Source: Mustelus asterias
Taxonomy: Eukaryota
NCBI RefSeq assembly: GCF_964213995.1
Contig: NW_027590170.1
Location: 124,001-188,000, forward strand
Reading direction: 5' to 3'
Length of the DNA: 64,000 nt
Part shown: positions 1 through 57,190 of the stretch, piece by piece
How the letters are laid out: the number at the start of each line of letters is the position of its first letter
Numbering within the stretch: position 1 is the stretch's first letter
Translations under genes and position numbers: made by a program
Notes under the pieces: model-generated
Seen by the model: only the letters and a program-made list of their open reading frames with translations
What the model was told of the DNA's origin: nothing
Database searches by the model: none

Positions 1-189
1 TTACTGAATGGCAGAGCAGCCTCGATGGGTCTAGATGCCCCCTCCTGCTCCTAATTTTGATCATGTTTTTATTCTGTTATTCGAATGGCCGCACATTCCC
101 CCTGCAGCACCTTCCCCCGGGAAAGGCAGCATCCATGAACCCGGCCTGTCAGTCAATGACTCAAACATTGTCTCTCCTGGTCACCCAAA

Positions 190-560
190 TCCTGAAGCTC
201 CGCCCACTGATCGCGCATGCGCTCTGCTCCCCGCTGAACAAAAATGGCGGCTGCGGCACTGGGCCTGATCCCGGATAAAATCCCCTAAGCTGCAAACCCG
301 GGACCGGAAGGCTCTAATTCAGGCCTTGCGGCCTGCAGCAGATGTTTATGAAACCTCTGTTCCCTCCCCACCCCGGCTCCCGGTTCCATTCCTCCTTGCG
401 CCCCACCGATTCTTACCCGTTGAAAAAAGTGTCTCCCGCAGGGCTCCGAGCAAAGTGACACTGCGCCAGATACAGCGCTGCGCCTGCGCACTGGGCTCCT
501 GTGGATGAATAGGGCACTTTCACACCCGCAGCGAATGCTGGGTAATAACCGCCATTGAAA
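190..560 (-). promoter_or_regulatory. CpG-island promoter and non-coding first exon of a ZNF-type gene lying left of the window
   Basis: NRF1 palindrome GCGCATGCGC (213-222), YY1 motif AAAATGGCGGC (~242-252) and a minus-strand donor CGG|GTAAG at 416-415. It is an inverted paralog of 18990-19420. Confidence 0.6.
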
Positions 561-954
561 CCTCATACAGTTAATTCAAAATAACATTGTTAGCATTTGA
601 GGTAAATTAATGAAATATTGAGAATTGGTGATCTGCTGTGCTCCATTTCTCAAAGTTCTGCTGCAGGACCATGCAATAACTTCAAAGCTTTTACATCGTT
701 TCCCTCTCACTCCTCCCTTTATGGTGCTGATTCTGGCTGGGTTCAATCGCAGTCACTGGTTCTTCTCTCTGTCCCTGATACTGAATATTCACTCTTTTAG
801 AGAATGAAACAGCATAAATAGAAACCATTTGGCCCATTATGTCTCTGCTGGCTCTCTGGAAGATCTATCCAACTAATTCCACAGCCCAGCTGGTAGAGTC
901 AGAACAATGCGGGAGGGTCGTGGGGATTCCAATCAGACCGAATCATTTTATCAT

Positions 955-1132
955 AAAAGTGAAATACTGTGGATGCTGGAATCTGAAAAAAACCCAGAAA
1001 ATGCTGGAAAATCTCAGCGGGTCTGACAGCATCTGTGGAGAGAGAATAGAGCCAATATTTTGAGTCCAGATGTCTCTTCATAAGAGCTCTTACGAAGTGT
1101 CATTCAGACTCGAAACCTTGGCTCTATTCTCT
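955..1132. mobile_element. Palindromic Penelope-derived element with two opposed degenerate hammerhead motifs
   Basis: 1041-1132 is an imperfect inverted repeat (AGAGAATAGAGCCAA...TTGGCTCTATTCTCT) centred on TAAGAGCTCTTA. The arms resemble the Penelope 3' motif at 32185-32223. Confidence 0.6.
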
Positions 1133-2523
1133 AATTATTTTATTGATATGTTTCTTGTTCTTAGTTTCCAAATGGCAGGTAAGAGACCTGTCCAGTCCCC
1201 ACTTGAGCTCTGATTTTTCACTGAACATGCTTGGGGAGGATTATAACCATTAGAATCTACTCTCAGAGGTCTACTTTTCAGTCCAGTGCTACTTGGAGTA
1301 TACCGTCACTTCACCGACTATCGGGTCACAAGTCCCTCACAGTTCTTATCACAAATTTATGATAAAATAATTTAAACAATGCCTGAGAACGCTTCTTCAC
1401 TTCTTAATCGACTACCTACCATGGTTTGTTGATTGGTCAGACCCTCTTTTTACAAATTCGGGTATATCAGCTGCTGAACACCAGCCGGTGTTCTGGAATA
1501 AGTTTAGTTCTAACTCATTCTGAGAAAATATTTTCACCATGTCCTCTATCAGGGCCCTGCTAAGCAGTTTTAATGGTCCGTGATTGCAGAAACTGAGCAG
1601 TCACAGGAATGTGGTCAAGATAGTCCAGTCCCATAATACCTCACATTCAATCTGCAGTCCTTCAATTATAACAGAATATGTGGCTGTATGTAGCTGCCTC
1701 GGCCATGGTCAACCCCAACACTGCCTTCTTGAACTGCTTCAATGCCTGAGGTGTAAGTACACCCACAGTGCTGTTAGGGAGGGTTTTCCAGCTACACATT
1801 CCATACTTTCACCAGAATGAAGGTGGATACCAGATTGATATATTCTATTCAACCACACCCAAGGTGAGTTGTTCAAATTCCTTTATTGTCTAGGACAATA
1901 TATTCACAATATCTTTAAATCAGAAATTAAACATTCCCATTTGATTTCAGGTATTAACATATTCTGTTAGTTTGTTCCTTATTGTCAATGTCAGACTGGG
2001 GTTCTCCTTGGAGCAAAGGAGGTTGAGGGAGATTTGATAGAGGTGGACAAAATTCTGACAGGTTGAGATAAGGTGGACAAAGGAAAGCTGTTCCCATTAG
2101 CTGATGGGACAAGGACGAGGGAGACACAGATTTATGGTTTTGGGTCAGAGATGCAGGGGGGGATGTGAGGAAGAATATTTTGATGCAGTGAATGGTAATG
2201 TTCTGGAACTCGAGCGTGGAGGAAGTGGAGACAACAAACTATTGCAAAGGAAATTGGATTGGCATCTGGGGGAGTTTCAAATAGAAATGCTGACTGAACA
2301 TGTCTGAACTTCCTCACACTCTGTCACTCTGTGATCCGTGTGAATTCTGAAACCAGGTATTCGCAACAAGACTCAGCCACTGGAGGCAAAGTCATGAGAC
2401 CGGCCAGTCCAGCAGAAAGAAACCCTCCGACCCTCCCCATTGACCAACTGTGAGAATGAACTAAATGCAGTCCTGGATGTAATTGAGAGCAGAAACAATG
2501 ACAGCAGAATCCAACCCCTGGAA

Positions 2524-3639
<1,116 letters not shown>

Positions 3640-4629
3640 CTGTAAAAGGAGTTTACAAAAGTGATCAGTGTCATTACAGGATAGAAATTCAGAACAATTC
3701 TAGTTTCTATGGAACATTCTTTCCTCTCTCATTCCCCAAAAGCTGTGAATCTCCATCCCACACACTCTCCCTCCATTCTCACTCTGCTGTATCTAATATT
3801 CACCCTCCCAATTCTCCTGAAGGTGCTGATTGAGGCTGATTGACAGATCCATGCTCACTGCTTCCTGTCCTGGACACACACAGCTGGAAATCTCCATGCA
3901 GGATGCCGGCCTAACAGAAATATGGCTACATTCCTCGACTAAAAATGTTTTAAATGGATTGTTTCAGTTAGTGAAGATACAGGGGAGGTTGTGACTGATG
4001 ATGATATTGAACTTGCTGCCAACGTGGGTGATCATAGAGTTTTACAGCATGGAAAGAGGCCCTTCGGCCCATCGGGTTTGTGCCGGCTATCAAGGACCGT
4101 TCTATTCCAATCCCATTTTCCATTCTTTGTGCGTAACCTTGTATGCCATGGCATTTCAAAAGCTGAACTAAATTCTTCTTATATGTTGTGAAGGTTCCCA
4201 CCTCTACTATTCTTTCAGGCACTGAGTTCCAGATTCCCACCACCCTCTGGGTCAAAAGATTTCTCCTCACTTCTCCTATAAACCTCCTGCTCCTGAAATT
4301 AAATCCAAGTCCCTGGTTATTGACCCCTCGACTAAAGAGAAAAGTTCCTTCCTATGCCCCCTATCTGTGCCCCTCAGAATTTTATACACCTCAATCAGGT
4401 CCCCCTCACCCTTCTCTGCTCCAAGAAAAGCAATGCCAGCCTATCCAGCCTCTCCTCATAGCTGAAACACTCCAGCCCAGCCAACACCCTGGGGAATTTC
4501 CTCTGCACCTTCTCCAGTGCAATTACATCCTTCCTCTCGTGTGGCAACCAGAACTGCACACAGTACTCCAGCTGTGGCCTATCCAGTGTTTTATACAGCT
4601 CCATCATAACCTCCCTGCCCTTATATTCA

Positions 4630-10145: not shown

Positions 10146-10383
10146 CTGACTAAATATCTCTAAACGTCCTAACACACTGTCACTCTGTGATCCTTGTGAC
10201 ATTTGAAATCAGGTATTCGCAAAAAGACACAAATAGCATCAGCCCACTGGAGGCTGAGACCAGCCAGTCCAGCACAAAGAAACCCTCTGACCCTTCCCAT
10301 TGACCAACTGTGAGAATGAACAAAATGCAGTCCTGGATGCAACTGACAGCAGAAACAATAACAGCAGAATCCAACCACTGTCA

Positions 10384-11394
10384 TCACTCGTGAACTTGTT
10401 GATGTCTCAGCAGCCGGGATGAAACGCTGAAACCCTTCCCACACACAGAGCAGGTGAATGGCCTCTCCCCAGTGTGAATGCGTTGGTGTCTCCGCAGGTC
10501 GGATGACCGAGTGAATCCCTTTCCACACTGAGAGCAGGTGAATGGTTTCTCTACAGTGTGAATTCGCTGGTGTGTCTGCAAGTTGGATAACTGAGTGAAT
10601 CCCTTCTCACACTGAGAGCAGGTGAACGGCCTCTCCCCAGTGTGAACTCGCTGGTGTGTCAGCAGGCTGGATAACTGAGGGAATCCCTTCCCACACTGAG
10701 AGCAGGTGAATGGCCACTCCCCAGTGTGAACTCGCTGGTGTGTCAGCAGGCTGGATAACTGAGTGAATCCCTTCCCACACTGGGAGCAGGTGAATGGCCT
10801 CTCCCCAGTGTGAACTCGCTGGTGTGCCCGCAGGTTGGATACCCGAGTGAATCCCTTCCCACACTGAGAGCAGGTGAATGGTCTCTCCCCAGTGTGAACT
10901 TGCTGGTGTGTCTGTAGGAGGGATAACCGAGGGAATCCCTTCCCACACTGAGAGCAGGTGAATGGTCTTTCCCCAGTGTGAACTTGCTGGTGTGTCTGCA
11001 GAAGGGATAACCGAGTGAATCCCTTCCCACACTGAGAGCAGGTGAATGACCTCTCTCCAGTGTGAACTCGCTGGTGTCTCTGCAGGTTGGATAACTGAGT
11101 GAACCCCTTCCCACAGTGAGAGCAGGTAAATGGTTTCTCCCCAGTATGAACTCGCTGGTGTCTCTGCAGGTCGGATAACTGAATGAATCCCTTCCCACAT
11201 TGAGAGCAGGTGAATGGTCTCTCCCCAGTGTGAACTCGCTGGTGTGACTGCAGGTCGGATAACTGAATGAATCCCTTCCCACATTGAGAGCAGGTGAATG
11301 GTCTCTCCCCGGTGTGGATGCGCCGATGAGCTTCCAGCTCTGATGGGGCTCTGTATCCCTTTCCACAGTCCACACATTTCCATGGTTTCTCCAT
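10384..11394 (-). CDS. Intact C2H2 zinc-finger protein ZNF-B: 12 tandem fingers, no effector domain
   Basis: Open frame from ATG 11394 (MEKPWKC) to the stop at 10384. Twelve C-x2-C-x12-H-x3-H units with TGE(R/K)P linkers. Terminal-exon acceptor TTTTACAG|GATATT at 11745. Confidence 0.9.
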
Positions 11395-11883
11395 GGTGCA
11401 GGTGTCCTTGCCTCTCTCTTGGGTGGACAATTAGTTGAAACTTCGTCCACACACAGAACAAGATTACAGTCTCTACCCGCTGTGAATGGTGTGATATTTA
11501 TTCAGACTGTGTAACTGGTTAAAGCTCTTTAGTCAGTGCATTGGAACACTCTCACTCAAGTGTGGCAGTGTGTCGATGCTTTTTCACTCACACTGACATT
11601 TCAAATCTTTTCAAATCGACAGACTGGACAATCATTTCTCCTTCTGGATTCAAAGTCCGATGATATTGAGGTCCCAAGGAATAAGACTCTGTCAGATCTA
11701 GACGTGACGTTTGAGATTTCAGCCTGTGATTCCTTTTTCAATATCCTGTAAAATGAGTTTCCAAAAGTCATCAGTGTCAGTACAGGATAGAAATTCAGAA
11801 CAGACAATTTCTATGGAACATTCTTTCCTCTCTCATTCCCCAAAAGCTGTAAATCTCCATCCCACACACTCTCTCCCCATTCT

Positions 11884-12065
11884 CAGCAGGTCTGGCAGCA
11901 TCTGTATGGAGAGAAAAGAACTGATGTTTCAGAGCTTTGACAAAGGGTCATCTAGACAAGAAACATCAGCTCTTTTCTCTCCTTACAGATGCTGCTAGAA
12001 CTGCTGAGATTTTTCAGCATTTTCTCTCTTGGTTTCAGATTCCAGCATCCGCAGTAATTTGCTTT
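11884..12065. mobile_element. Palindromic Penelope-derived element
   Basis: Inverted arms GCAGCATCTGTA.GGAGAGAAAAGA..TCTTTTCTCTCC.TACAGATGCTGC. Same family as 955-1132. Confidence 0.6.
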
Positions 12066-12770
12066 TATAAGGCTGCAGATACCTCCTCCCAAGTAACATG
12101 CGTGTGCCCAAGACATCATCACTTGTTTCCCTTATTTCTTTAGCACCCATGGTGCTCTCCGCAGTAAACACAGAGGAGAAGTATTCATTAAAAATCTCAC
12201 CCATCTCCTGTGGCTCCACACACAGATGGCCATACTGATTTTTAAGGGGATCTATTCTCTCTCTGGCCACCCTTTTACTCTTAATATAGCTATAGAACAT
12301 CTTGGAATTTTCTTTAATCTTACCTGCCAGATCCATATCATACCCTCATTTTGTCCTCCAGATTTCCCTCTTCAGTATTTTCTTATACTTTTTATAGTCA
12401 GAGTGATTCATTTGTCCCCGATTCCTAAACCCAATGTATGCTTCCTTCTTTTACCTGACCAGAGCCTCAATGTCCCTTGTCTGCCAGAGATCCCTAAATT
12501 TACCATTCTTTCCCTGCATCTTAACAGGAATATACTGCCCCTGGACTCTTGATATCACACTTTTAAAACCTCCCATTTGCCAGTCATTCCTTTCCCTTCA
12601 AACAAATTCACCTAATCGACATCTGCTAGATCCTGCCTAATGCCCACAAAAGTGGCCCTGCTCCAGTTTAGGGCCTTGACCTGTGGACCTGTCCTATCTT
12701 TTTCAAGAACTATTTTGAAACTATTGGTGCTCCCAATACTGACACTTCAGTCACTTGCTCCACCTCATTT
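12066..12770 (-). mobile_element. CR1 LINE ORF2 fragment (endonuclease-RT linker)
   Basis: IKENSKMFYSYIKSKRVARERIDPLK..EMGEIFNEYFSSVFT. Confidence 0.85.
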
Positions 12771-12940
12771 CTTAACTGTCTAATAGAAAGTGAGTCCAGG
12801 AATTGATAATGAAAAATAAGGAGCTGGGAGATGAATTGAACAAGTATTTTGCCTCGGTGTTCACAATAGAGGATACAGTTAAAACTCAGAAACAGCTGGA
12901 AATCAGAATTGCAATTAATTAATAATAATGAATAATAAAA

Positions 12941-13232
12941 TACAGTGTAGGAGGAGGCCATTCAGCCCATCGAGCCTGCACCGACAACAATCCCATCCAG
13001 GCCCTATCCACATATTTACCTGTTAATTCCCCGATACCAAGTGGCAATTTATCATGGCCAATCTGTCTAACCGGCACATCTTTGGACTGTGGAAGGAAAC
13101 CGGAACACCCGGAGGAAACCCACACAGACACGGGGAGAATGTAGAAACTCTGCACAGACAGCGACCTGAGGCTGGAATTGAACCCGGGTCCCTGGCGCTG
13201 TTAGGCAGCTGCACTAACCACTGTGCCACCGG
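12941..13232 (-). mobile_element. HE1-like V-SINE (CR1-type tail)
   Basis: Head, V-domain and GGCTGAATGGCCTCCT tail. Confidence 0.85.
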
Positions 13233-13285
13233 GCCACATGTCAGTGCCATCGCCCAACTCCAGCCCAGTCTCAGCTCATCTGGAA

Positions 13286-13535
13286 CCCTCACCCATTCCA
13301 TTGTGACATCACACCCTCACCCATTCCATTGTGACATCACACCCTCACCCATTCCATTGTGACGTCACACTCTCACCCATTCCATTGTGACGTCACACCC
13401 TCACCCATTCCATTGTGACATCACACCCTCACCCATTCCATTGTGATGTCACACTCTCACCCATTCCATTGTGACGTCACACTCCCACCCATTCCATTGT
13501 GACGTCACACTCTCACCCATTCCATTGTGACGTCA
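13286..13535. repeat. 28-bp minisatellite, 9 copies (CACCCTCACCCATTCCATTGTGACGTCA)
   Basis: TTGTGA recurs every 28 bp from 13301 to 13525. Five copies have TGACGTCA, three TGACATCA and one TGATGTCA. Confidence 0.95.
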
Positions 13536-13559
13536 GGGCTTCACTCTCCGATCACAATC

Positions 13560-14450
13560 CCTGCCGGCCTCCCACATGCAGCCTCAATGGCGGCAGTCAG
13601 CCCGGGTCTAACACTACAAGCTGCCGCTCCATTTGGTACAAAGCGGGGGAACCGGGAAGTTCATTTCCGGGGTTTGGGTTTGAACAACATGTTTACAAAG
13701 TCTCTCCACCCACCCGCTGGATTCATCGCTCCCCGCGCACCGCCCTCTACCTCGTATTGATCTCGCTTCCAAGATAAAACCGGCCGTCTGTCCGTCGCCA
13801 TTACCCGCACTGCGCATGCTTCAGGTCCCGCCCCTCATTCACTCCGATTGGTTGGAGGACCAGCCGCTCCCGCTCGGTCCTTCAGCCCCGCCCCCTCTTC
13901 CTATTGGTCCGGAGCTGCCGTCAATCAGTCCCCGGGCATTGTGATGTGGAGCATGCGCACTGTCATTGCTGTCCTTGGCGCTTGTTTGTCCCGGAGAAGC
14001 GGAGTCAGCGTTAGGCAGTGGCTGGGAGGATTTGGAAACACTTTGTGGATCCGCAAACCCTTCAGAATCATTGTCAGCTCCCTGGTTTGCAGCTGCGGGG
14101 CTTCTCCCTCCCTCCCTCCCTCCCGGGAACAGGCCCAGGTTAACGGCCCCATCCTGGCTCAGCCACTGGAGGATGGTTCACATCAGAGGATGGGGGAGGG
14201 GGACAATAAATAAGAGGTTACACTTTGGCCTCAAATCAATGAGGACTCTGATCTCTGGGAAGGAAGGAAGGAAACCCTGGGAGGTGGGCGGGGAGGATTC
14301 ACAAACACCCGCTGGAGGCCCCAACACCCCCAGTAAAAAGCTGCAGCTCCCGGGTTTGCAGCTTTTTCCCGGGAGGGAGTTGGGGAAGTTTTGTGGAGAC
14401 CATTCCCGGCTGGTTCAGTTCGTGGTTCCTGGAGCTCAGAAACCCTGAGT
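13560..14450. promoter_or_regulatory. CpG island, probable bidirectional promoter between divergent ZNF-B and ZNF-D
   Basis: NRF1-like TGCGCATGC (~13811) and GCATGCGCA (~13950), GC boxes CCGCCC, two ATTGG boxes (~13846, ~13903), high CpG density, and a candidate minus-strand donor CGAG|GTAGAG near 13750. Confidence 0.65.
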
Positions 14451-15887: not shown

Positions 15888-16586
15888 GGAACTAGAAGAG
15901 GATTCACAGACATTCGATTCATCATGACCTGCTTTTGACAGTGATTGCTTATGATTGATTTTGACAGTGGAGGGAGAAATAGTTCCCTGTTTTGTCAGTG
16001 GAAGAAAATTTCAAAATTCAATGTGACAGAAAAAGAACTGAGACACACACACCCAAGTGAGAGTGCTCCAGTGAACTGACTGTGAATAGAGCTTTAACCA
16101 GTTACACAGCCTGAAAAACATCACACCATTCACAGTGGAGAGAAACCATACACATGGTCTGTATGTGGATGAGGCTTCAACTAATCATCCAACCTGGAGA
16201 GACAGAAGGACACCAGCACCATGGACAAACCGTGAAAATGTGAGGATTGTGGTAAAGGATTCAATTATCCATTCCGGTTGGAAACCCATTGACATGGTCA
16301 CATTGGGGCTGGGAAAATGGAGAAACCATGGAAATGTGATGATTGTGGTAAAGAATTCAATTATCCATACTTGCTGGAAAACCATAGATACAGTCACATT
16401 GGAGAGAGGCCATTCATCTGTTCTGTGTGTGGGAAAGGATTCACTACCTCACCCCACCTGCTGTTACACCAGCGAATTCACACTGAGGATGAAAATTCTC
16501 CTTTTCTTTGCAGGGAAAGGATCGCTGGGTATAAATGTAAGGTGCTTCTCGCAACTATAACTGAGCCGTATTATGAACTCAACTGA
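15888..16586 (+). pseudogene. Degenerate C2H2 zinc-finger gene ZNF-D (2 intact fingers)
   Basis: Acceptor TTTTGCAG| at 15887. A broken first-finger copy (MDKP*KCEDC) precedes ORF 16317-16586, [24 protein letters not shown]. Confidence 0.7.
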
Positions 16587-18989: not shown

Positions 18990-19420
18990 CCCTGCGGGTT
19001 TGAAAGTGTCCTATTCATTCCACAGGAGCCTAATGCGCAGGCGCAGTGTTATATCTGGAGCGTGCGCAGTGTCACTTTGCTCGGAGTCTTGCGAGTCCGG
19101 GAGTTGGCACGTTTTTCTGCGGGTGAGTCGGTGGGGTTGCGGGAGAAATGGAGCCGGGAGTCGGGGTAGGGAGGGAGCTATGGCTTCCAAACATCCGCTG
19201 TAGGCTGCAAGACCCGAATAAGACCCTGCAGGTCCCGGGTTTACAGCTCCCAGGCTTTTATCCCGGGAACAGGCCCCAGTTGTCGGCCGCCATCTTGTTT
19301 CAGCGGAGACGGAGGGCGCATGCGCTGCTGTCTGACGGGTCATAATGGGCGTGGTTTCAGGGGCAGGTTCAGAACCTCTATCTTCAGAGGGACAATAGGT
19401 GGCAGGGCGCATGCGCAGCT
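18990..19420 (+). promoter_or_regulatory. CpG-island promoter and non-coding exon 1, probably of ZNF-C
   Basis: Donor CGG|GTGAGT after 19122, YY1 GCCGCCATCTT (~19287), NRF1 GCGCATGCGC (~19317, ~19407). Inverted paralog of 190-560. Confidence 0.6.
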
Positions 19421-23180: not shown

Positions 23181-25086
23181 TTTATGAATTTTTAAACGGC
23201 CATTCATTTCTCTGTTTGACCTCTGCCCTCCCTGATCAGCTCTCTGCCATTGTCTACCTTCCTCTGCCTCTAATAATGGGTGTATTTTAACTATTATTTC
23301 CGCAAGCTATGTCTTGATGAGGTTTTTCCCACTTCACAACTCTGTTCACTGCTGATTTACCATTTTAGAAAGGAATTGTTTCTCTTCCACTGGAGATCAT
23401 TTCCCTTCCACTTCTGAGCTTATATTGACCAACAAAATCTGATACATTTTTATTCCCTGTAATTCATTCTGCCCACCCTGAAACGTTAATCTTCTTTCTG
23501 TCTAAAAGGACGGTCTCTTTCCTCATGTTCACAATTAAAGGGCAGGAGATGGCTGACATTTAAGGGGACAGTAAATTAATATAGGACAGAGATATGTCCA
23601 GTGTTATTATATGGTACCCAGATTAGATAATTATGTTGCTGTATAAAATATATTTATTATTATTTCTTGCATTGTAATATAATCCTGTAGCGATGTTATA
23701 CATTTCCAGTCATAAAGTCATTACAGCACAGAAAGAATCCATTTGGTAACTCGAGTCCATGCTGACTCTCTGTATAACATTCCAGTCCCATTCCCACTCT
23801 ATATCCCATTCTCCTGAAAGTTTATTTCCTTCAAGTGCCCATCCACTTTCCTTTTTAAATAGGATCCATAGATATGGATGGAGATTTACAACTTTTTGGG
23901 AATGAAGTAGGAAAGAATGTTCCATAGAAACTAGAATTGTCTGCTCTGAATTTCTATCCTATACTGACTGTGATGACTTTTGCAAACTTATTTCACAGGA
24001 TTTTGAATGAGGAATCACAGGCAGAAATCTCAACCGTTCTGAATATCTTGTAATATGGAACTGTAGCTACGTTATATATTTCCAGACGTCTCTGCCCTCA
24101 GAGGGCTGTTGGTCTTTTGGATTTCTGTTCCACAGGGACCAGTGGAGGCTGAGGATCATTGAATATATTCCAGTTAGACAGATCTTTGACTGACAAGGGT
24201 GTCAAGGGTTATGGGGAACAGACAAGAAGATGGAGAAAAAGCTAATATGTGAGGGGATTTCTTCACTCAAGGATGTGGTAAAGCTTTGGAATTCTCAACC
24301 CCTGAGGACAGTGAAGCCTCAGTCATCAACTATTTTCAAGAGAGAGATTGATTGGTTTCTAGATATTGAAGATATCAAGGGATATGGGTTTAGTGTGGGG
24401 AGAATGATGCTGAGGTAGATGAACAAATTATCTCATTGAATAGTTTAAAAGGCTCGATGGGCCAAATGGCCGACTGCAGCTCCTATTTGTTATGGTCTCT
24501 GTGTCCAGGACAGGAAGCAGTGAGCATGGATCTGTCAATCAGCCTCAATCAGCACCTTCAGGAGAATTGGGAGGGTGAATATTAGATACAGCAGAGTGAG
24601 AATGGAGGGAGAGTGTGTGGGATGGAGATTTACAGCTTTTTGGGACTGAAATAGGAAAGAATGTTCCATAGAAACGAGAATTGTCTGTTCTGAATTTCTA
24701 TCCTGTACTGACACTGATGACTTTTGTAAACTTGTTTTACAGGATATTGAAAGAGGAATCACAGACCGAAATCTCAAACGTCACGTCAGATCTGACAGAG
24801 TCATATTCCATGGGAGTTGAATATCATCGGCCTTTGAATCTAGAAGGAGAAATGATTGTCCGGTCTCTTGATTTGAAAAGATTTGAAATGTCAGTGTGAC
24901 TGGAAAAGCACCAACACACTGCCACACTCGAGTGAGAGTGTTCCAATGCACTGACTAAAGAGCTTTAACCAGTTACACAGCCTGAATAAATATCACACCA
25001 TTCACAGCGGGGAGAGACTGTACACGTGTTCTGTGTGAGGCTTCAACTGATTGTCCACCCAAGAGAGAGGCAAGGACACCTGCACC

Positions 25087-25929
25087 ATGGAGAAACCATG
25101 GAAATGTGGGGACTGTGGGAAGAGATACAGATACCCATCAGAGCTGGAAGCTCATCGGCGCAGCCACACTGGGGAGAGACCATTCACCTGCTCTCTGTGT
25201 GGGGAGGGATTCACTCAGTCATCCAGCCTGCAGTCACACCAGCGAGTTCACACTGGGGAGAGACCATTCACATGTTCTCAGTGTGGGAAGGGATTCACTC
25301 GGTCATCCGACCTGCGGGCACACGAGCGAGTTCACACTGGGGAGAGGCCGTTCACCTGCTCTCAGTGTGGGGAGGGATTCAGTCATTTATCCACCTTGCG
25401 CACACACCGGCGATTTCACACTGGGGAGAGGCCGTTCACCTGCACTGTGTGTGGGAAGGGATTCACTCGGTCATCCGACCTGCGGACACACCAGCGAGTT
25501 CACACTGGGGAGAGACCATTCACCTGCTCTCAGTGTGGGGAGGGATTCATTTGGTCATCTGACCTGCGGGCACATGCATGCGTTCATACTGGGGAGAGGC
25601 CGTTCACCTGCTCTCAGTGTGGGAAGGGATTCACTCGGTCATCCCACCTGTAGAGACACCGGCGCGTTCACACTGGGGAGAGGCAGTTCATCTGTTCTCA
25701 GTGTGGGAAGGGATTCTGTGATTCATCCAGCCTGCTGAGACACCAGCGAGTTCACACTGGGGAGAGGCCATTCACCTGCTCTCAGTGTGAGAAGAGATTC
25801 ACTCGATTATCCAACCTGCGGACACACCAGCGAGTTCACACTGGGGAGAAGCCGTTCACCTGCTCTGTGTGTGAGAAGAGATTCAGTCTTTCATCCGCCC
25901 TGCTGAGACACCAACGGGTTCACGAGTGA
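25087..25929 (+). CDS. C2H2 zinc-finger gene ZNF-C: 10-finger array with a premature TAG in finger 7 (6 complete fingers translated)
   Basis: Acceptor TTTTACAG|GATATT at 24742/24743 and ATG 25087 (MEKPWKC). TAG at 25651-25653. The frame then stays open through the rest of finger 7 and three more fingers to HQRVHE* (25927-25929). Confidence 0.8.
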
Positions 25930-27449: not shown

Positions 27450-28986
27450 TTGCTGACATGGACATCAAGGCCTGTATGGGTCTCCAGGCCATCATGCACA
27501 CCATCATGATAAGGAGGATGGAGCTGGTGTTGCCAGCCATGTACATGATGAACAGATTCATGGGCAGCTGTTTCAATGGGCCCAAGGCGATGAAAACAGA
27601 AAGTGAGCAGGGTATCAGTAAAGGGGGCCGGTTAGGGGAGGCCATATGCTGATCTTATACCCAGGCCTGGAAGTAAGGATGATGATTAACCCTTTATCAC
27701 ACAGGCTGCTGTGGTTCACCAAGGTGCTTTATCACCATGGACAAACCAGGGGCGTTGTCAGTCACACACTAAAGGCACATTCAAATCCAACTTACTTTCT
27801 CAACCAGGATCCGGTCTGTTTCTTGGACGCAGATGTCCGGTAGCTGTTTGTCTGAATATGCGACTGGGTACATGGAGTCTCTCTGGCTATACTGTTGACC
27901 ACGGCTCCTATGAGAAACAGAAAACACAAATTGGTCACCCTTTCAGGACCTTCTTTAAAGAGGGAGTCTCTCTGTTGAGGACCCCAATGTGGTGACAATA
28001 GTGCCAGCATGAACTAAAGCTTGGGCAAACCTCGGACGCACACTGCCGTTGTGTCCACTGAACTGCCACGGGAATGGAGGATGGCAGAAGTGGATGAGTG
28101 TCAATTGATAAAAAGGGTGCCAATCCACTTGCCCTCCATTTAGGGACCATCATAGATCATAGAACCCTACAGTGCAGAAAGAGGCCATTCGGCCCATCGA
28201 GTCTGCACCGACCACAATCCCACCCAGGCCCTACCCCCATATCCCTACATATTTTACCCACTAATCCCTCTAACCTACTCATCTCAGGACACTAAGGGGC
28301 AATTTTAGCACAGCCAATCAACCTAACCCGCACATCTTTGGACTGTGGGAGGAAACCGGAGCACCCGGAGGAAACCCACGCAGACACGAGGAGAATGTGC
28401 AAACTCCACACAGACAGTGACCCGAGTGGGAATCGAACCCAGGTCCCTGGAGCTGTGAAGCCGCAGTGCTAACCACTGTGCTACCGTGCCGCCCTGGTTT
28501 TTGACAAAGTGACAAATCACCAGATGTACCAAATTGTATCTTGAAAACAAACACTGCGGGACATTGAGAGAGATCCAGTTCAGCACCCGGCCCTGGAAAC
28601 GAGCAGTCGTTCCTCCAACCACCACCGCAGTTGGCACCTGATCAGGTGAAGGGGCCGAAACCAAAAGGGCATCTCAGGGTCATGACCTGGAGAACAGATG
28701 CCAAGTGGGGTCTGAGTGGTTTCTGGGGGATTTGAGGGGCTGCTTTGTGGTGAGGAGTTCGGTGAGGGGTAAAAGAGGCGTGAAAAACCCGGGGTTGGGA
28801 AGTTTTGGGTTGGTGCCATGTCCCCGGGTCAGTGTGCGGTGGCGTCCCCTCAGGAGAGGCGGGCCGGCCCGGCTTGCCGCTTACTCGAGACCCCGGCTCC
28901 CCCGGGCGGCCTCCGCACCTGCTGGTGCCGCTCAGGGTCCGCTTGTGCCAGCGCGCGCGGTTGACAAGTCCCACCCCTGCAGCCAT
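27450..28986 (-). pseudogene. EMC4: Unprocessed, truncated copy of ER membrane protein complex subunit 4 (exons 1-3)
   Basis: Exon 1, 28986-28919: MAAGVGLVNRARWHKRTLSGTS|GTGCGG. Exon 2, 27907-27796: [38 protein letters not shown]|GTAAGT (in frame). Exon 3, 27591-27450: [47 protein letters not shown]|GTGAGT, lacking its AG acceptor and the RCWD codons. No later exons were seen. Confidence 0.9.
28151..28492 (-). mobile_element. HE1-like V-SINE (CR1-type tail) in EMC4 intron 1
   Basis: Head, V-domain and tail. Confidence 0.9.
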
Positions 28987-28989
28987 GGT

Positions 28990-29230
28990 AACGCCGCCGA
29001 TCGTTAACCGTCCCCCCTTTCAAATCTGATTCAGATCAAGAGAAGAAGCCGCGCGCTTCCGTCAACAAAACACTCCCGCTGCAATGCGCATGTGCGAGCC
29101 CAACCGCCTGAGCGTTCTGCGGGCACCGCCTAAAGTCCCGCCCCACATCGACGCCATCTTTGTCAGGGGCGCATCTGTTCCGACTCTCCACCTTCTGTCC
29201 AAATGGAGAACATTTGCCCCGCACAAAGAT
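28990..29230 (-). promoter_or_regulatory. CpG-island promoter of the EMC4 copy
   Basis: ETS CGGAAG (minus, ~29055), NRF1-like TGCGCATGTGCG (~29085), GC box and YY1 CGCCATCTT (~29152). CpG-rich from ~28800. Confidence 0.65.
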
Positions 29231-38499: not shown

Positions 38500-38797
38500 A
38501 CATGAGTAACGGAGACTCAGTGTCCCAGTCAGAACCAGGAATTTAAGCAGCAGAGGGTAAAGATTCAGCAATTCCCTGCAGTTACTCTGTATCGAGTTCA
38601 GCTACAGTCTATGTCCTGTTCTGGTATCGCCATATCCACACAGATCTCCTCAGAGCCGATAGTTATGGATTTACCGATACGGCTCCCGGCTTTAAACATT
38701 TCAGCGGGAACCTCAGCCAGACACAAAGCACTTTTCACTTGTCCATGAAAGATTTGAAGGTGACAGACAGCGCCGTGTATTACTGTGCACTGAGACC
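38500..38797 (+). pseudogene. TCR alpha/delta V segment pseudogene (V1)
   Basis: Acceptor TTTTCAG|; MSNGDSVSQSEPGI*AAEGKDSAIPCSYS..LFWYRH..FHLSMKDLKVTDSAVYYCALRP. TAA at 38544-38546 and a shortened FR2. Confidence 0.9.
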
Positions 38798-38836
38798 CAC
38801 AGTGAATGAGGCTCCCGCGGGCCTCGTACAAAAACT
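38798..38836 (+). other. 23-bp-spacer recombination signal sequence of V1
   Basis: CACAGTG + 23 nt + ACAAAAACT. Confidence 0.95.
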
Positions 38837-41605: not shown

Positions 41606-41644
41606 AGTTTTTGTACGAGGATTTCACTCGTTCTCATCACTGTG
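41606..41644 (-). other. 23-bp-spacer recombination signal sequence of V3
   Basis: Minus strand CACAGTG + ATGAGAACGAGTGAAATCCTCGT (23 nt) + ACAAAAACT. Confidence 0.95.
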
Positions 41645-42701
41645 AGACTCTGTGCACAGTAATAGACCGCAGTGTCAGACAGCCGCAACTCCGAAATAGT
41701 CACTCGGTACAAATTGTCTGACTGCTGGACTGAATCAGAAAACCGGGTCCGAGCGAAATCCGCCTTTAATTCAAAACCGCCGTTCTTGTCTCTCCGGACT
41801 GCAAACTCGGGCTGTCTGCCTGGGTATTGACGATACCAAAATAAATAATAAGCATCGTCGGTAAAGGTGCAGTTTAAAGTGACATCTTCTCCCTCTGTCC
41901 GTGTGAGTGAGGATTCCCGCTGAGTAACAGAATCTCCATCGCTCAGATCTGAAACACACGGTTAAAGAAAGGAAAAAAACATTGATTAAAAGTTCAATTG
42001 AACTAAGGGAGAAAATTCACTGACAGTGTAACGTAAAAATATGTATTGAATGTATTGAATCATACCACATTCTCTCCAACTGATCTATGTTCCCGTTTAC
42101 AATCCCCTGGAGATTTCTCCCTCTCGCCTCTTCTCAATGCAGTTGTCCCTTTCTTCCTCAGCTGTTTAGTTTAGTTTACCTTTAAATTAGTCTTTGCTCC
42201 TCTCCTCAAGTGTTCATTGTGTTAACATGAGTCACATTCTATCCAACTCTTTCTAAAGCTGTTTCTCTCCGATTCCCAGTTGATCTCTTTGTTTCATTGG
42301 AATTGTGGGACATATATTTGGAATTCTCCCACAAGTGGAATCATCCTCTCCCCGTCCACCACACCAATCCTCGTTATCATTATAAATAGATCAGTCAGGT
42401 TTGCGTTAGTTTCTTTGGTCAGTCGAGAAAGTAATCATAATCTTGCATTCTGATAGCTCTCACCTCCCAATCCGAGTACCATTTCTCGAAATCGCCTTTT
42501 CAGTGTGCTTTTCAAATCTATTTTCAAAAGACTAAAACCACTCGCAGGAATTCATTTGTGTTCTACGGCATGTCCAATACCTGTATAACACGAATGTCCT
42601 GCTTTTCAACTTTATTCCTCCAGAAAATAACTCATTTTTAAAGTGTTAACCTTACCAACAATGAATGTCACCCAGATCAGAGTGAAAACGGGGAGCCGCA
42701 T
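41645..42701 (-). CDS. Intact TCR alpha/delta V gene segment V3 (leader 42701-42656, intron, V exon 41948-41645)
   Basis: MRLPVFTLIWVTFIV|D-LSDGDSVTQRESSLTRTEGEDVTLNCTFTDDAYYLFWYRQYPGRQPEFAVRRDKNGGFELKADFARTRFSDSVQQSDNLYRVTISELRLSDTAVYYCAQS. Phase-1 GT..AG intron, conserved Cys/Trp/YYC, no stops. Confidence 0.92.
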
Positions 42702-53019: not shown

Positions 53020-56000
53020 TGAAGAAAGATATTAGCACAGCGGATGTGGAAGACTGGTAAGGGAACTGTGGCCAAGCCATCGCGTACAAGGGAAGAAGAA
53101 ACATACAAATTGGTAAATAAATCCATCGACCTGAGAATTTGGAGCAGTTTCAATTCAGCACAAAAGGACCCAGGAATTGATTCGGAAGGGAAAAAATAGA
53201 GTGTGAAAGTAAGAAGGCGGGAAACATAACAAATAGTTGATCCATTTGTGGGCATTTTCGAAAAAATATTTAGACTCTAAACTGGTCGCCACAGATTGGA
53301 GGGTAGCTAATATACGCCCGCCATTCAAAAAGGGAGGTAGAGAGAAATAGGGTGAACCATAAGGCAAAGAGCCGAACATTAGAACTAGGAAATTGCTCGA
53401 ATCAATTATTAAGGATTTCATAACTCAGCATTTGGAAGGCAGTGGTAAAATCAGACGAAGTCAACATGGATTTGCAAAGGGGAAATCATGCTTGGCAAAT
53501 CTATTGGAATTGTGTGAGAATGTAACTAGTAGAGGTGACCAAGGAAAACTGGTGGGTATGGGTTATTTAGACTTTAAAATGCTTTCGGCAAGGTCTCATA
53601 TAGCGTACGACCATAAAAGTGGCATGGATAGTGTATTGAGCTGGATAGAAAGCTGCTTAGCAGATAGGAAGCAAAGAGTTGGCAGAAATGAGTGTTTTTC
53701 CAATTGGCTGGTAGTGACCAGTGGGGTACCGCAGGGATCCACGCTAGGAGCCCAACTGTTCTTATTGTGTATAATTGATTTCAAAGAGGGAACTAAATGT
53801 GTTTTCTCCAATTTGCAGGTGACGCAAAGTTAGGTGAGAGGGTGAGCTCTGAGAAGGATGCAGCGATGCTTCAGCCTGATTTAAACAGGCAGAGTGAATG
53901 GACATATGCATCGAAGATGCAGTATAATGTGGGCAAATGCGAGATCATCCACTTCGGAGGCAACAATAGGACGGCAGATTATTATTTGAATAAATTGAGC
54001 GGTGAATATTCAGCGACAGCTTGGCATCCATGTGTATTGGCGCTGAAAGAAAGCACCACAGGTTCAGCAGGCGGTAAAGAAGGCAAGTGGTATGCTGGCC
54101 TTCATAACGACAGGATTTGAGTATAAGGATAGGGATATTTTACTGCAATTTTACAGGGCGTTGGTGAGCCCACAACTGGAGTATTGTGTGCAGTGTTGGT
54201 GTCCTTATCTGAGGAAGGATGTCCTTACTGCAGAGCGAGGGCAATGAAGATTTACCAGACTGATTCCTGGTCTGTCGTGTGAGGAGAGACGAAGTCAGTT
54301 AGGATTATATTATGTGGAGTTTAGAAGAGTGAGAGGGAATCTCATAGAGACTGATAAAATTCTAAAAATACATCGACTGGCAGACTCAAGTCGGTAAGGG
54401 TGGAATGGAGGAAGAGTACTTAGAATGCTGTCGGGATAGTTTCCTTGAACAGCATGTTACGGAACCGACGAGGGAACGAGCTATTTTGGATCTGGTATTG
54501 TGTAACGAGGTAGGTAGAATTAAGGATCTTATTGTGAAGGACCCTCTTGGGTCTAGTGACCACAATATGGTCGAATTTCTGATTCAGATGGAAGAGGAGA
54601 AAGTTTGGTCCCAAACAAGTGTCCTCTGTTTGAACAGAGGGAAATATGATAGGATGAGGGATGAATTGGCTAAGGTAGACTGGGAGAGCAAGCTGGCAGG
54701 TAGGATAGCTGAGGAACAGTGGAGGGTTTTTAAGGAGATCCTTTTCAGTTCTCAGCAAAAATATATTCCAGCAAAAAACAAGGATTGTAAGAAAAGGGAG
54801 AACCAGCCGTGGATAACGAAGGAAATAAAGGAGAGTATTAAAATAAAAACAGCTGCGTACAGAGTGGCCAAAAATAGTGGAGAAACAAGTGATTGGGAAA
54901 AATTTAAGAAACAAAAAAGAGAGACGAAGAAAGCGATAAAGAAAGGAAGGATAGACTATGAAGCTCGGCTAGCAATTAATATAAAAAATGAAAGTAAAAG
55001 TTTTTATAAATATATAAAAAGGAATAGAGTGGCTAGAGTGAATGTTGGACCCTTGGAGGACGAGAGGGGGGAGTTAATAGTGGGAAATGAGGATATGGCT
55101 GAGTCTTTAAATAAGTTTTTTGTGTCGGTCTTCACGGTGGAGGACACAAATAGTTTGCCAAATATTAACGATAGAGGGTTGGCAGCAGGAGAAATACTTA
55201 ATACAATTAATGTTACCAGAGAGGCAGTGCTGGGTAGACTAATGGGACTGAAGGTGGACAAGTCCCCGGGTCCGGATGGAATGCATCCCAGGGTATTGAA
55301 AGAAATGTCAGAGGTAATAGTGGATGCGTTAGTGATTATTTATCAAAACTCGTTGCATTCTGGGGTAGTGCCGGTTGATTGGAAAACGGCTAATGTTACG
55401 CCGCTGTTTAAAAAAGGAAGGAGACAAAAGGCGGGTAACTATAGGCCGGTCAGCTTAACGTCTGTAGTAGGGAAAATGCTGGAATCCATTATTAAAGAGG
55501 AGATAGCAGGGCATCTGGATAGAAATGGTTCGATCAATCAGACACAGCATGGATTCATGAGGGGAAAGTCGTGCTTGACGAACATGTTGGATTTTTATGA
55601 AGATGTGACTAGGGCGGTTGATGGAGGAGAACCAGTGGATGCGGTGTTTTTGGATTTCCAAAAGGCGTTTGATAAGGTGCCCCATAAAAGGCTGCTGAAG
55701 AAGATTAGGGCACACGGAGTTGGGGGTAGTGTGTTAAAGTGGATTGGGGACTGGCTATCCGACAGGAAGCAAAGAGTCGGAATAAATGGGTGTTTTTCCG
55801 GTTGGAGGAAGGTAACTAGTGGCGTGCCGCAGGGATCGGTACTCGGGCCGCAACTATTTACCATTTATATAGATGATCTGGAGGAGGGGACGGAGTGTAG
55901 GGTAACGAAGTTTGCAGACGACACAAAGATAAGTAGAAAAGTGAATCGTGTGGAGGACGGAGAAGATCTGCAGAGAGATTTGGACAGGCTGAGTGAGTGG

Positions 56001-57190
56001 GCGAGGATATGGCAAATGGAGCATAACGTTGATAAATGCGAGGTTATACACTTTGGAGGAAATAATAACAAATGGGATTACTATCTCAATGGAAACAAAT
56101 TAAAACATGCTACCGTGCAAAGGGACCTGGGGGTCCTTGTGCATGAGACACAAAAGCCCAGTCTGCAGGTACAACAGGTGATCAAGAAGGCAAATGGGAT
56201 GTTGGCCTATATCGCGAGGGGGATAGAATATAAAAGCAGGGATGTCTTGATGCACCTGTACAGGTCATTGGTGAGGCCGCAGCTGGAATACTGTGTGCAG
56301 TATTGGTCCCCTTATATGAGGAAGGATATATTGGCATTGGAGGGAGTGCAGAGAAGGTTCACCAGGTTGATACCGGAGATGAGGGGTTTGGATTATGAGG
56401 AGAGGCTGAGGAGATTGGGTTTGTACTCGTTGGAGTTTAGAAGGATGAGGGGGGATCTTATGGAGACTTATAAGATAATGCGGGGGCTGGATAGGGTGGA
56501 GGCGGAGAGATTCTTTCCACTTAGTAAGGAAGTTAAAACTAGAGGACACAGCCTCAAAATAAAGGGGGGTCGGTTTAAGACAGAGTTGAGGAGGAACTTC
56601 TTCTCCCAGAGGGTGGTGAATCTCTGGAATTCTCTGCGCACTGAGGTGGTGGAGGCTACCTCGCTGAATATGTTTAAAGCGCGGATGGATGGATTCCTGA
56701 TCGGAAAGGGAATTAAGGGTTATGGGGATCAGGCGGGTAAGTGGTACTGATCCACGTCAGATCAGCCATGATCTTATTGAATGGCGGGGCAGGCTCGAGG
56801 GGCTAGATGGCCTACTCCTGCTCCTATTTCTTATGTTCTTATGTTCTTATTAGACAGGGTAAATTCAGAAAGATTATCCCAGAAGGCTGGGGAGTCCAGA
56901 ACTAGGGGGTCATAGTCTGAGGATAAGGGGTAAAACCTTTAGAACTGAGGTGAAGAGAAACTTCATCACCCAGACAGTGGTGAATCTGTGGAATTCACTA
57001 GCACAGGAAGTGATTATGACCAAAACGTTGCTGGATTTCAAGAAGAAATTAGATATAGCTCTTGGGGCTAAAGGGAGCAAGGGATCTGGAGGGAAGGCAC
57101 GATCAGGATATTCAATTTGATGATCATCCATGATCATAATGAGTGGCGAAGAAGGCTCGAAAGGCCGAAAGGCCTTTTCCGGTTTCTATT
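53020..57190 (+). mobile_element. Old CR1 LINE (53020-54367 and 56851-57190) split by a younger CR1
   Basis: QHGFAKGKSCLANLL..VPQGSTLG. The host sequence resumes at TAGACAGGGTA after the young insertion. Confidence 0.85.
54368..56850 (+). mobile_element. Young 5'-truncated CR1 LINE with an uninterrupted 781-codon ORF2 (54405-56750)
   Basis: End of the APE domain (LDLVL..GSSDHNMV), complete RT (YRPVSLTS, QHGF, DFQKAFD, PQGS, FADD) and (TTCTTATG)n tail. Confidence 0.95.

Follow-up and report, generated by a model that had tools for sequence, protein, structure and literature searches.

We found that ZNF-B, a gene on the minus strand of a 64,000-nucleotide stretch of Mustelus asterias DNA (hereafter the window), is, as judged from its sequence, intact and arose by recent duplication in a shark family that comprises about 2,000 C2H2 zinc-finger (ZNF) genes whose predicted products consist of fingers only. 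By the same reading, this finger-only gene falls outside both the KRAB and the FiNZ family, though it evolves like both. Lineage-specific ZNF expansions are thought to police transposons, through a silencing route that is known for KRAB proteins and proposed for the FiNZ and KRAB-like ones. Shark ZNF counts are among the largest, reaching 3,586 ORFs (PMC10547256), and an effector domain is, on present evidence, lacking. What sets the family apart, its thousands of diversifying arrays of fingers that apparently carry no effector, is solid; a role in defence is put forward here as a proposal. Such a family separates recognition from repression and would let one test directly whether diversified fingers suffice by themselves, or a single specialised finger does. 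It offers as handles the finger-1 residues, which can be mutated, natural variants in finger number within a young clade, and a non-coding element found across the family.

ZNF-B is predicted to encode twelve zinc fingers and no effector domain

The coding sequence (10384..11394, minus strand) is a single ORF of 336 amino acids, which runs from MEKPWK through 12 tandem canonical C2H2 fingers with TGERP-type linkers to one further residue (E) and the stop codon, with HE-stop directly after finger 12. The start codon lies in a strong (optimal) Kozak context, ACCATGG, and the gene has the Kruppel-type tandem array with TGEKP-like linkers in a single exon. The first-pass annotation, made from the letters alone, had described 12 fingers starting MEKPWKC and nothing more, and the translation of the ORF agreed with it; the -1/3/6 triplets it had listed (AEA, QDS, QDR, QNR, RLT, RLT, RNA, QST, QST, QNT, RDR, VRR) were identical at 12/12 fingers. 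The reported absence of KRAB, SCAN and BTB held as well: neither these domains nor SET appeared among the best 25 of 31 Pfam families for the ORF, and the seven frames between the exon and the promoter matched no Pfam family at E 0.1 (no KRAB, SCAN, BTB or SET). A PR/SET domain upstream of the fingers, as in PRDM9, was likewise absent from the best 25 of the 31 families and from the upstream frames. The near-invariant backbones that had been noted were seen within ZNF-B, whose internal fingers differ from each other by 3-21 of 84 nt; they do not extend to the family as a whole, in which several non-contact helix positions also vary. Outside the fingers there are six amino acids ahead of finger 1; behind the last finger, 38 of 61 clean copies have just one residue, K or E.

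ZNF-B is most likely an N-terminal truncation of a longer gene

Upstream of the ATG, the same predicted exon continues as a non-coding leader (11395..11745, minus strand). Its 351 bases, which reach to the predicted splice acceptor (11746-11747), hold a fossil acidic spacer and three dead fingers, broken by stops and frameshifts. Three upstream ATGs open uORFs of 15, 3 and 2 codons, and the nearest in-frame stop lies 13 codons ahead of the ZNF-B ATG. This ATG occupies a linker position, reading T-M-E-K-P against T-G-E-K-P, from which we infer that the ZNF-B protein is most likely an N-terminally truncated form of that of a longer ancestral gene and that its start codon replaced a former inter-finger linker. 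An upstream in-frame open stretch of at least 100 codons was present in 0 of 93 sampled family copies (median 12 open codons, maximum 87), and the first leader stop was TGA in 38 of the 39 copies readable by pattern (54 were unreadable). The effector-less architecture put forward in the first-pass annotation thus survived a search of the DNA for an upstream effector exon, which found none. Readthrough of the two leader stops was also considered and is not supported, because the leaders of most copies carry frameshifts.

The same spacer, ending at the same ...FQTSV stop, occurs in gene models of Pristiophorus japonicus and Heterodontus francisci (P0122, P0123, P0126), and the Pristiophorus protein P0081 begins MEKPWKC; six of seven matches in a protein search with the spacer were shark proteins. 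The shared ...FQTSV end and MEKPWKC start suggest that the truncation is older than the split of two shark superorders, as we take Pristiophorus and Heterodontus to stand on opposite sides of the galeomorph-squalomorph divide. In model P0122 of P. japonicus, histone H2A runs into the ZNF-family spacer, which hints that histone genes share the clusters in another shark.

Beyond the leader and element remnant (see below) lies the predicted intron (11886..13535), which contains two SINE-like repeats, CR1-like fragments and a minisatellite; a Pfam domain was absent from both long frames tested there. It is followed by a GC- and CpG-rich putative promoter (13540..14340), a multicopy sequence with 1,724 candidate copies in the genome, situated between ZNF-B and a decayed copy on the opposite strand; the promoter is probably bidirectional and would serve both. 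Its motifs include what we take to be NRF1-like and CCAAT-like sites. Further GC-rich, promoter-like islands with TGCGCATGC-type motifs were seen at window positions 100-540, 19000-19400 and 28640-29200, and the island at 19.2-19.3 kb has a short match to the ZNF-B promoter. On the other side of the gene, a 3' block (10151..10383, minus strand) is common to ZNF-A and ZNF-C at 83-85% identity. The exon, the leader and the promoter are overlain by assembled contigs from four sequencing runs presumed to be RNA. Their identity, for the most part 85-95%, points to family members or other species and is evidence neither for nor against expression of ZNF-B; no promoter-to-exon splice was among the joints listed for these contigs, and this too bears neither way on expression.

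A large clustered family spread by segmental duplication

The first-pass annotation had counted three paralogs within 27 kb at different stages of decay. ZNF-A, ZNF-B and ZNF-C answer to that description, but the count missed a fourth, heavily decayed copy (15888..16560, plus strand), which stands head-to-head with ZNF-B. ZNF-A (2524..3282, minus strand) is a pseudogene with a stop directly after the ATG, damaged fingers and a second internal stop, and ZNF-C (25087..25929, plus strand) has 10 fingers with a stop in finger 7, leaving a six-finger ORF.

Across the genome, a 25-base start motif gave 2,144 exact matches (control, 0), far beyond the three paralogs of the window, and the first 100 listed were clustered on contigs C12, C16, C23 and C71. 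There were 2,938 candidate copies of the ZNF-B leader, and the 40 scored were 96-100% identical and lay on C71 and many smaller contigs. A protein search with ZNF-B residues 1-60 was of little use, as its 3,360 matches were mostly generic ZNFs. Our sample of 93 copies followed the listing order of the start motif on C8, C12, C16, C18, C23, C24 and C71; it is not random and leaves out copies whose ORF ran past the retrieved stretch. At least five fingers from the ATG were kept in 67 of these copies (median 9), and 26 were broken. The in-frame leader is closed in 93/93, and set against the open finger ORF it is an internal control for selection on the ORF.

Ten close copies have up to 20 kb of flank in common with the window, mostly at 93-99.96% identity, with pseudogenes and repeats copied along. 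Six of them are colinear over the entire retrieved upstream flank (to window 19.7-21.6 kb), interrupted only by insertions, while in the other four the shared unit ends at about 14335, which suggests that the complete ZNF-B transcription unit may be contained within that stretch. These alignments show ZNF-B to have spread, as far as the copies record it, by segmental duplication of promoter plus gene. A discrete mobile element carrying ZNF-B was rejected on the six copies that are colinear far upstream and the four that end just past the promoter. Some of the near-identical copies may be haplotigs or assembly collapses.

Thirteen copies (ZNF-B included) with leader identity of at least 97% carried 12, 11, 12, 6 (frameshifted), 6, 12, 11, 5, 12, 8, 9, 12 and 12 fingers, and those without a frameshift retained the first and last fingers. 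Several copies at 96-97% leader identity had similar end fingers and unrelated middle fingers. Variable arrays behind near-identical leaders indicate that the finger arrays change much faster than their flanks, and comparison of near-identical copies shows what reads as gain and loss of internal fingers. The 2,144 matches, their clustering, the broken copies and the varying arrays bear out the earlier description of a very large, clustered birth-and-death family. One member, L027 (G000:C16:92893166-92896190), has 16 fingers in two near-identical runs (SGGQ/SEGQ type, then CSHE type), a composition unlike the mixed arrays of other family members.

The recognition helix appears to diversify on a conserved scaffold

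The 91 genes with at least five fingers yielded 638 unique internal fingers, which we joined in a minimum spanning tree. Changes were counted on its short edges, with CpG transitions left out and kappa set to 2, given the 2.06 that fourfold non-CpG sites showed. The contact positions (-1/3/6) gave a dN/dS of 2.06 (1.72-2.46) on 265 of 637 nearest-neighbour edges and 1.65 (1.46-1.84) on 491 edges, above all six runs of null simulations with neutral helices (0.93-1.38). The linkers gave 0.25-0.31, the core Phe/Leu 0.02-0.25 and other positions about 0.65; Cys and His were invariant by the pattern used to select fingers. Measured against the synonymous sites of the contact codons themselves, the contact ratios were 1.55 (1.15-2.20) and 1.34 (1.11-1.60), and with this yardstick the 137 shortest edges gave 1.26 (0.79-2.28), which is not significant, as was also the case with kappa 1. 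The non-contact helix positions -2/+1/+5 were likewise raised (1.2-1.5), which could come from finger-level gene conversion or from relaxed constraint. CpG decay was rejected as the source of contact diversity, since the ratio hardly changed without CpG transitions (1.96 to 2.06). The spanning-tree count is not a likelihood site model, and gene conversion lies outside it. Taken at the family level, these ratios lend moderate, model-dependent support to diversifying selection on the recognition helix, and they show purifying selection on the scaffold that binds zinc. Positive selection on the contact residues, which the first-pass annotation had proposed to look for, is thus seen at a dN/dS of about 1.65-2.1 with the same moderate and model-dependent standing, and purifying selection on them, which would have spoken against its idea, was not what we found.

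Copy number alone does not require an arms race, the family lying in repeat-rich, duplication-prone DNA in which TCR-V-like segments are co-amplified. Duplicates of at least 20 kb at 97-99.96% identity that drag pseudogenes and repeats along, TCR-V-like segments multiplied on the same contigs, 26 of 93 copies broken, raised non-contact helix positions and a marginal local-dS test would all sit well with an expansion that is a by-product. Duplication-prone, repeat-rich DNA would then copy the cassette, selection would preserve the fold only, and helix diversity would stem from relaxed constraint, finger shuffling and gene conversion. We consider such an origin unlikely, given an ORF that is open in 67/93 copies while the adjoining leader has decayed in 93/93, and a contact dN/dS that exceeds all six null runs with all-site dS and the measured kappa, also when CpG changes are excluded.

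A candidate repertoire for the recognition of repeats

The reading that we tentatively favour is that the family forms a repertoire likely to follow repeats such as transposons, with any silencing partner recruited by the fingers, finger 1 foremost. The finger-only proteins would be expressed and bind DNA, the roughly 2,000 genes would make up a fast-evolving set of DNA-recognition specificities, and its targets would be transposons and other repeats. A silencing partner, if there is one, would come in through the fingers, most plausibly by binding the constrained outer face of finger 1. In the available text of PMC10547256, animal-wide ZNF counts correlate with retroelement counts, whatever the accessory domain. 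A bolder version, which we think improbable, makes the family a third, independently built vertebrate anti-transposon ZNF system that would have shed its N-terminus ahead of the galeomorph-squalomorph split, made a cofactor handle of finger 1, once an internal finger, and shuffled the downstream fingers for new specificities.

The proteins could also be specific DNA binders under diversifying selection whose targets are mainly not transposons but gene promoters, satellites, other ZNF genes or the conserved element of the family itself, which strikes us as doubtful. Positive selection leaves the target unnamed, KZNFs are described as frequently binding satellites, promoters and other KZNFs (PMC10547256, in the part available), and a near-invariant non-coding element present in 44 of 93 copies could serve family-wide regulation; yet transposon load is the best documented driver of such expansions in the same text (PMC10547256), and most of the conserved element is missing from ZNF-B.

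Finger 1 has a constrained surface outside its DNA contacts

The first finger of ZNF-B (11314..11376, minus strand) combines constrained residues (D of CxDC, P+1, S+2, E+5, R+8 and R+9) with variable -1/3/6 positions. Among 79 unique first fingers, P+1 was present in 97%, S+2 in 95%, E+5 in 92%, R+8 in 84%, R+9 in 96% and the D of CxDC in 92%. Positions +1/+2/+5/+8/+9, a set picked after inspection of this profile, gave a dN/dS of 0.23 (0.11-0.38) versus 0.93 in internal fingers. The contact positions vary, with a dN/dS of 1.40 (1.04-1.88) and an entropy of 2.4-2.6 bits at -1/3/6. The earlier description of a conserved first finger is therefore right for the non-contact positions and wrong for the contacts.

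On this profile, finger 1 is a distinct finger type with a predicted non-reading surface under constraint. It is plausible that this surface binds protein and so acts as the cofactor handle that the first-pass annotation had suggested, an idea that the constrained non-contact set favours and that a ray protein weakens: a related finger occurs in the stingray protein P0057, but the stingray protein P0026, of similar design, begins without finger 1. The surface would also be compatible with an end-cap or folding role, and finger 1 may, given its varying contacts, be no more than an end finger that binds DNA. Searching the PDB with finger 1 returned generic fingers only. ZNF512 reportedly recruits SUV39H1 through its fingers; our literature search found no relevant paper, and we do not use it as support.

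If repeats were instead targeted by occupancy alone, with the proteins blocking transcription-factor sites or retroelement promoters and needing no cofactor, finger 1 would be constrained for folding or for its place at the end of the array. The near absence of residues outside the fingers and finger-1 contacts that vary as in a DNA reader agree with this, but constraint on the outer positions of finger 1 is about four times that on the corresponding positions of internal fingers. Occupying dispersed repeats would, moreover, need high protein levels, which the uORFs would tend to reduce, as would stalling on tandem fingers, described in zebrafish in the accessible part of PMC11620358; we judge this explanation decidedly unlikely.

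A near-invariant upstream element behaves as non-coding

An element of about 126 bases lies some 490-940 nt upstream of the ATG in 44 of the 93 sampled copies and consists of a 66-nt exon-like part and the start of the intron (60 nt). Its pairwise divergence is 6.3% versus 21.7% in the remaining leader (879 pairs), and one of its 50-mers has 960 exact copies in the genome. The GT/GC donor is retained in 44/44 copies, an ATG is present in 36/44 and indels occur in 9/44; codon periodicity was absent from the 66-nt block in both frames tested, and presence of the element is unrelated to ORF integrity (32/67 intact versus 12/26 broken copies). ZNF-A carries the exon-like part and intron start at 3744..3869 (minus strand) and ZNF-C the exon-like part with 60 nt of intron at 24509..24634 (plus strand). 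ZNF-B retains only the last 44 nt (11842..11885, minus strand), a SINE-like repeat beginning where the remainder is missing, so the element is not the effector of ZNF-B.

A coding effector exon was rejected as the identity of the 66-nt block on its lack of periodicity, its indels and its loss from ZNF-B, and a structured RNA was rejected for the element on folding no better than that of shuffles (z +1.43, +1.29) and the lack of an Rfam match at E up to 5. The element may have a shared regulatory function, or it may be a conversion tract. One of its strands has a perfect TGATTGACAG, which we take to be a PBX/PREP-type site, and an ETS-like CAGGAAG is present as well. In several copies, SINE and LINE ends lie directly against the 5' edge of the element, and in three different paralogs (L020, L023, L035) SINE-like insertions with apparent target duplications fall within the same few bases 5' of it. 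An orphan fragment of family intron and acceptor with no finger array lies at window 23860-24040 (plus strand), about 600 nt upstream of the ZNF-C element.

A 28-aa acidic peptide on an upstream coding exon, as in FiNZ, was not found by an indirect test, which used no FiNZ profile and relied on the only conserved upstream block lacking coding periodicity, tolerating indels and being mostly absent from ZNF-B. It is very improbable that a short, unrecognised FiNZ-like N-terminal effector is spliced to the fingers through the acceptor just upstream of the ATG, since the FiNZ precedent (a 28-aa exon that, in the available text of PMC10547256, has no significant similarity to known domains), the conserved, mostly ATG-bearing 66-nt block, the horn shark model P0124, which joins the spacer to residues before MEKPWKC, and the sawshark relative P0125, which reads through the spacer, face a block that lacks periodicity, tolerates indels, is unlinked to an intact ORF and is lost from ZNF-B, and an ATG in optimal context behind an in-frame stop.

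A genome search for KRAB (PF01352) gave 0 matches among 76 scored candidates, a weak result in which no control matched. PRDM9 with an ancestral KRAB has been placed in whale shark (PMC11603059, in the portion available), so this search may be insensitive; the whale shark genome paper, in its accessible part, lists KRAB-domain families as lost in cartilaginous fishes (PMC8455134). SCAN-like matches were 146 of 150 scored (604 candidates), dispersed, with none on C71 or C138.

Comparison with known zinc-finger systems

Like the KRAB-ZFPs of sarcopterygians (KRAB-TRIM28-SETDB1), the shark genes form a large, clustered birth-and-death family in repeat-rich clusters, encode all their fingers, with TGE[KR]P linkers, in a single last exon, and carry diversified -1/3/6 residues on a conserved scaffold. 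Unlike them, the shark family lacks KRAB, both within the ORF and upstream of it and by the (weakly controlled) genome search, its N-terminal part is a fossil in the leader, and it runs to about 2,000 copies. The finger minisatellite of PRDM9 rapidly gains and loses near-identical internal fingers while its ends stay fixed, a behaviour that the shark arrays share; in contrast to PRDM9, the shark family lacks SET, KRAB and SSXRD and comprises thousands of genes rather than one.

The available sections of PMC10547256 present the FiNZ-ZNFs of cyprinids as another non-KRAB vertebrate expansion, with positive selection on base-contacting residues in some FiNZ clades and a concentration on a chromosome arm rich in repeats and immune genes, both likenesses to the shark family. 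Upstream of their fingers, FiNZ genes carry a coding exon of 28 aa that is conserved, and knocking them down has been shown to derepress TEs (PMC10547256), whereas the shark upstream block behaves as non-coding and a silencing role for the shark family is a proposal. Actinopterygian KRAB-like ZNFs, linked to TRIM33 in the accessible part of PMC11603059, are likewise proposed TE silencers in a lineage without canonical KRAB-ZFPs, but they keep an N-terminal KRAB-like domain, which the shark family lacks.

Shark ZNF counts are already published: for six shark assemblies Wells et al. 2023 give 703-3,586 ZNF ORFs, for a skate 1,223 and for elephant shark 475, and they mention dozens of uncharacterised ZNF families, and the available main text does not contain the words shark, chondrichthyan, cartilaginous or skate (PMC10547256). 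We found no description of the finger-only shark architecture in a search by title and start of abstract, whose coverage excludes subscription journals.

Repeats and antigen-receptor V segments around ZNF-B

The surroundings had been called very TE-rich, and we found the same: when positions 1-30 kb of the window were compared with 106 loci on other contigs, two or more of these loci matched at least 56% of the bases outside the ZNF genes, a lower bound for repeat content. An unbroken 794-aa frame at window 54366-56750 (minus strand) reads, by inspection, as a CR1-type LINE reverse transcriptase.

Two antigen-receptor V segments (Pfam V-set) lie in opposite orientations at 38547-38835 (plus strand) and 41607-41961 (minus strand), each followed by a recombination signal with a 23-bp spacer; we take their features to be TCR-alpha-like. 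The first segment was found at 84-95% in at least 40 places (200 candidates) on contigs carrying ZNF clusters, with copies on C71 at 4.5, 7.2 and 17.1 Mb and also on C89, C96, C111 and C119, which indicates that V segments are interleaved with ZNF genes and amplified together with them. Two more decayed V-like frames were seen near window 46.3-46.8 kb and 48.2-48.7 kb.
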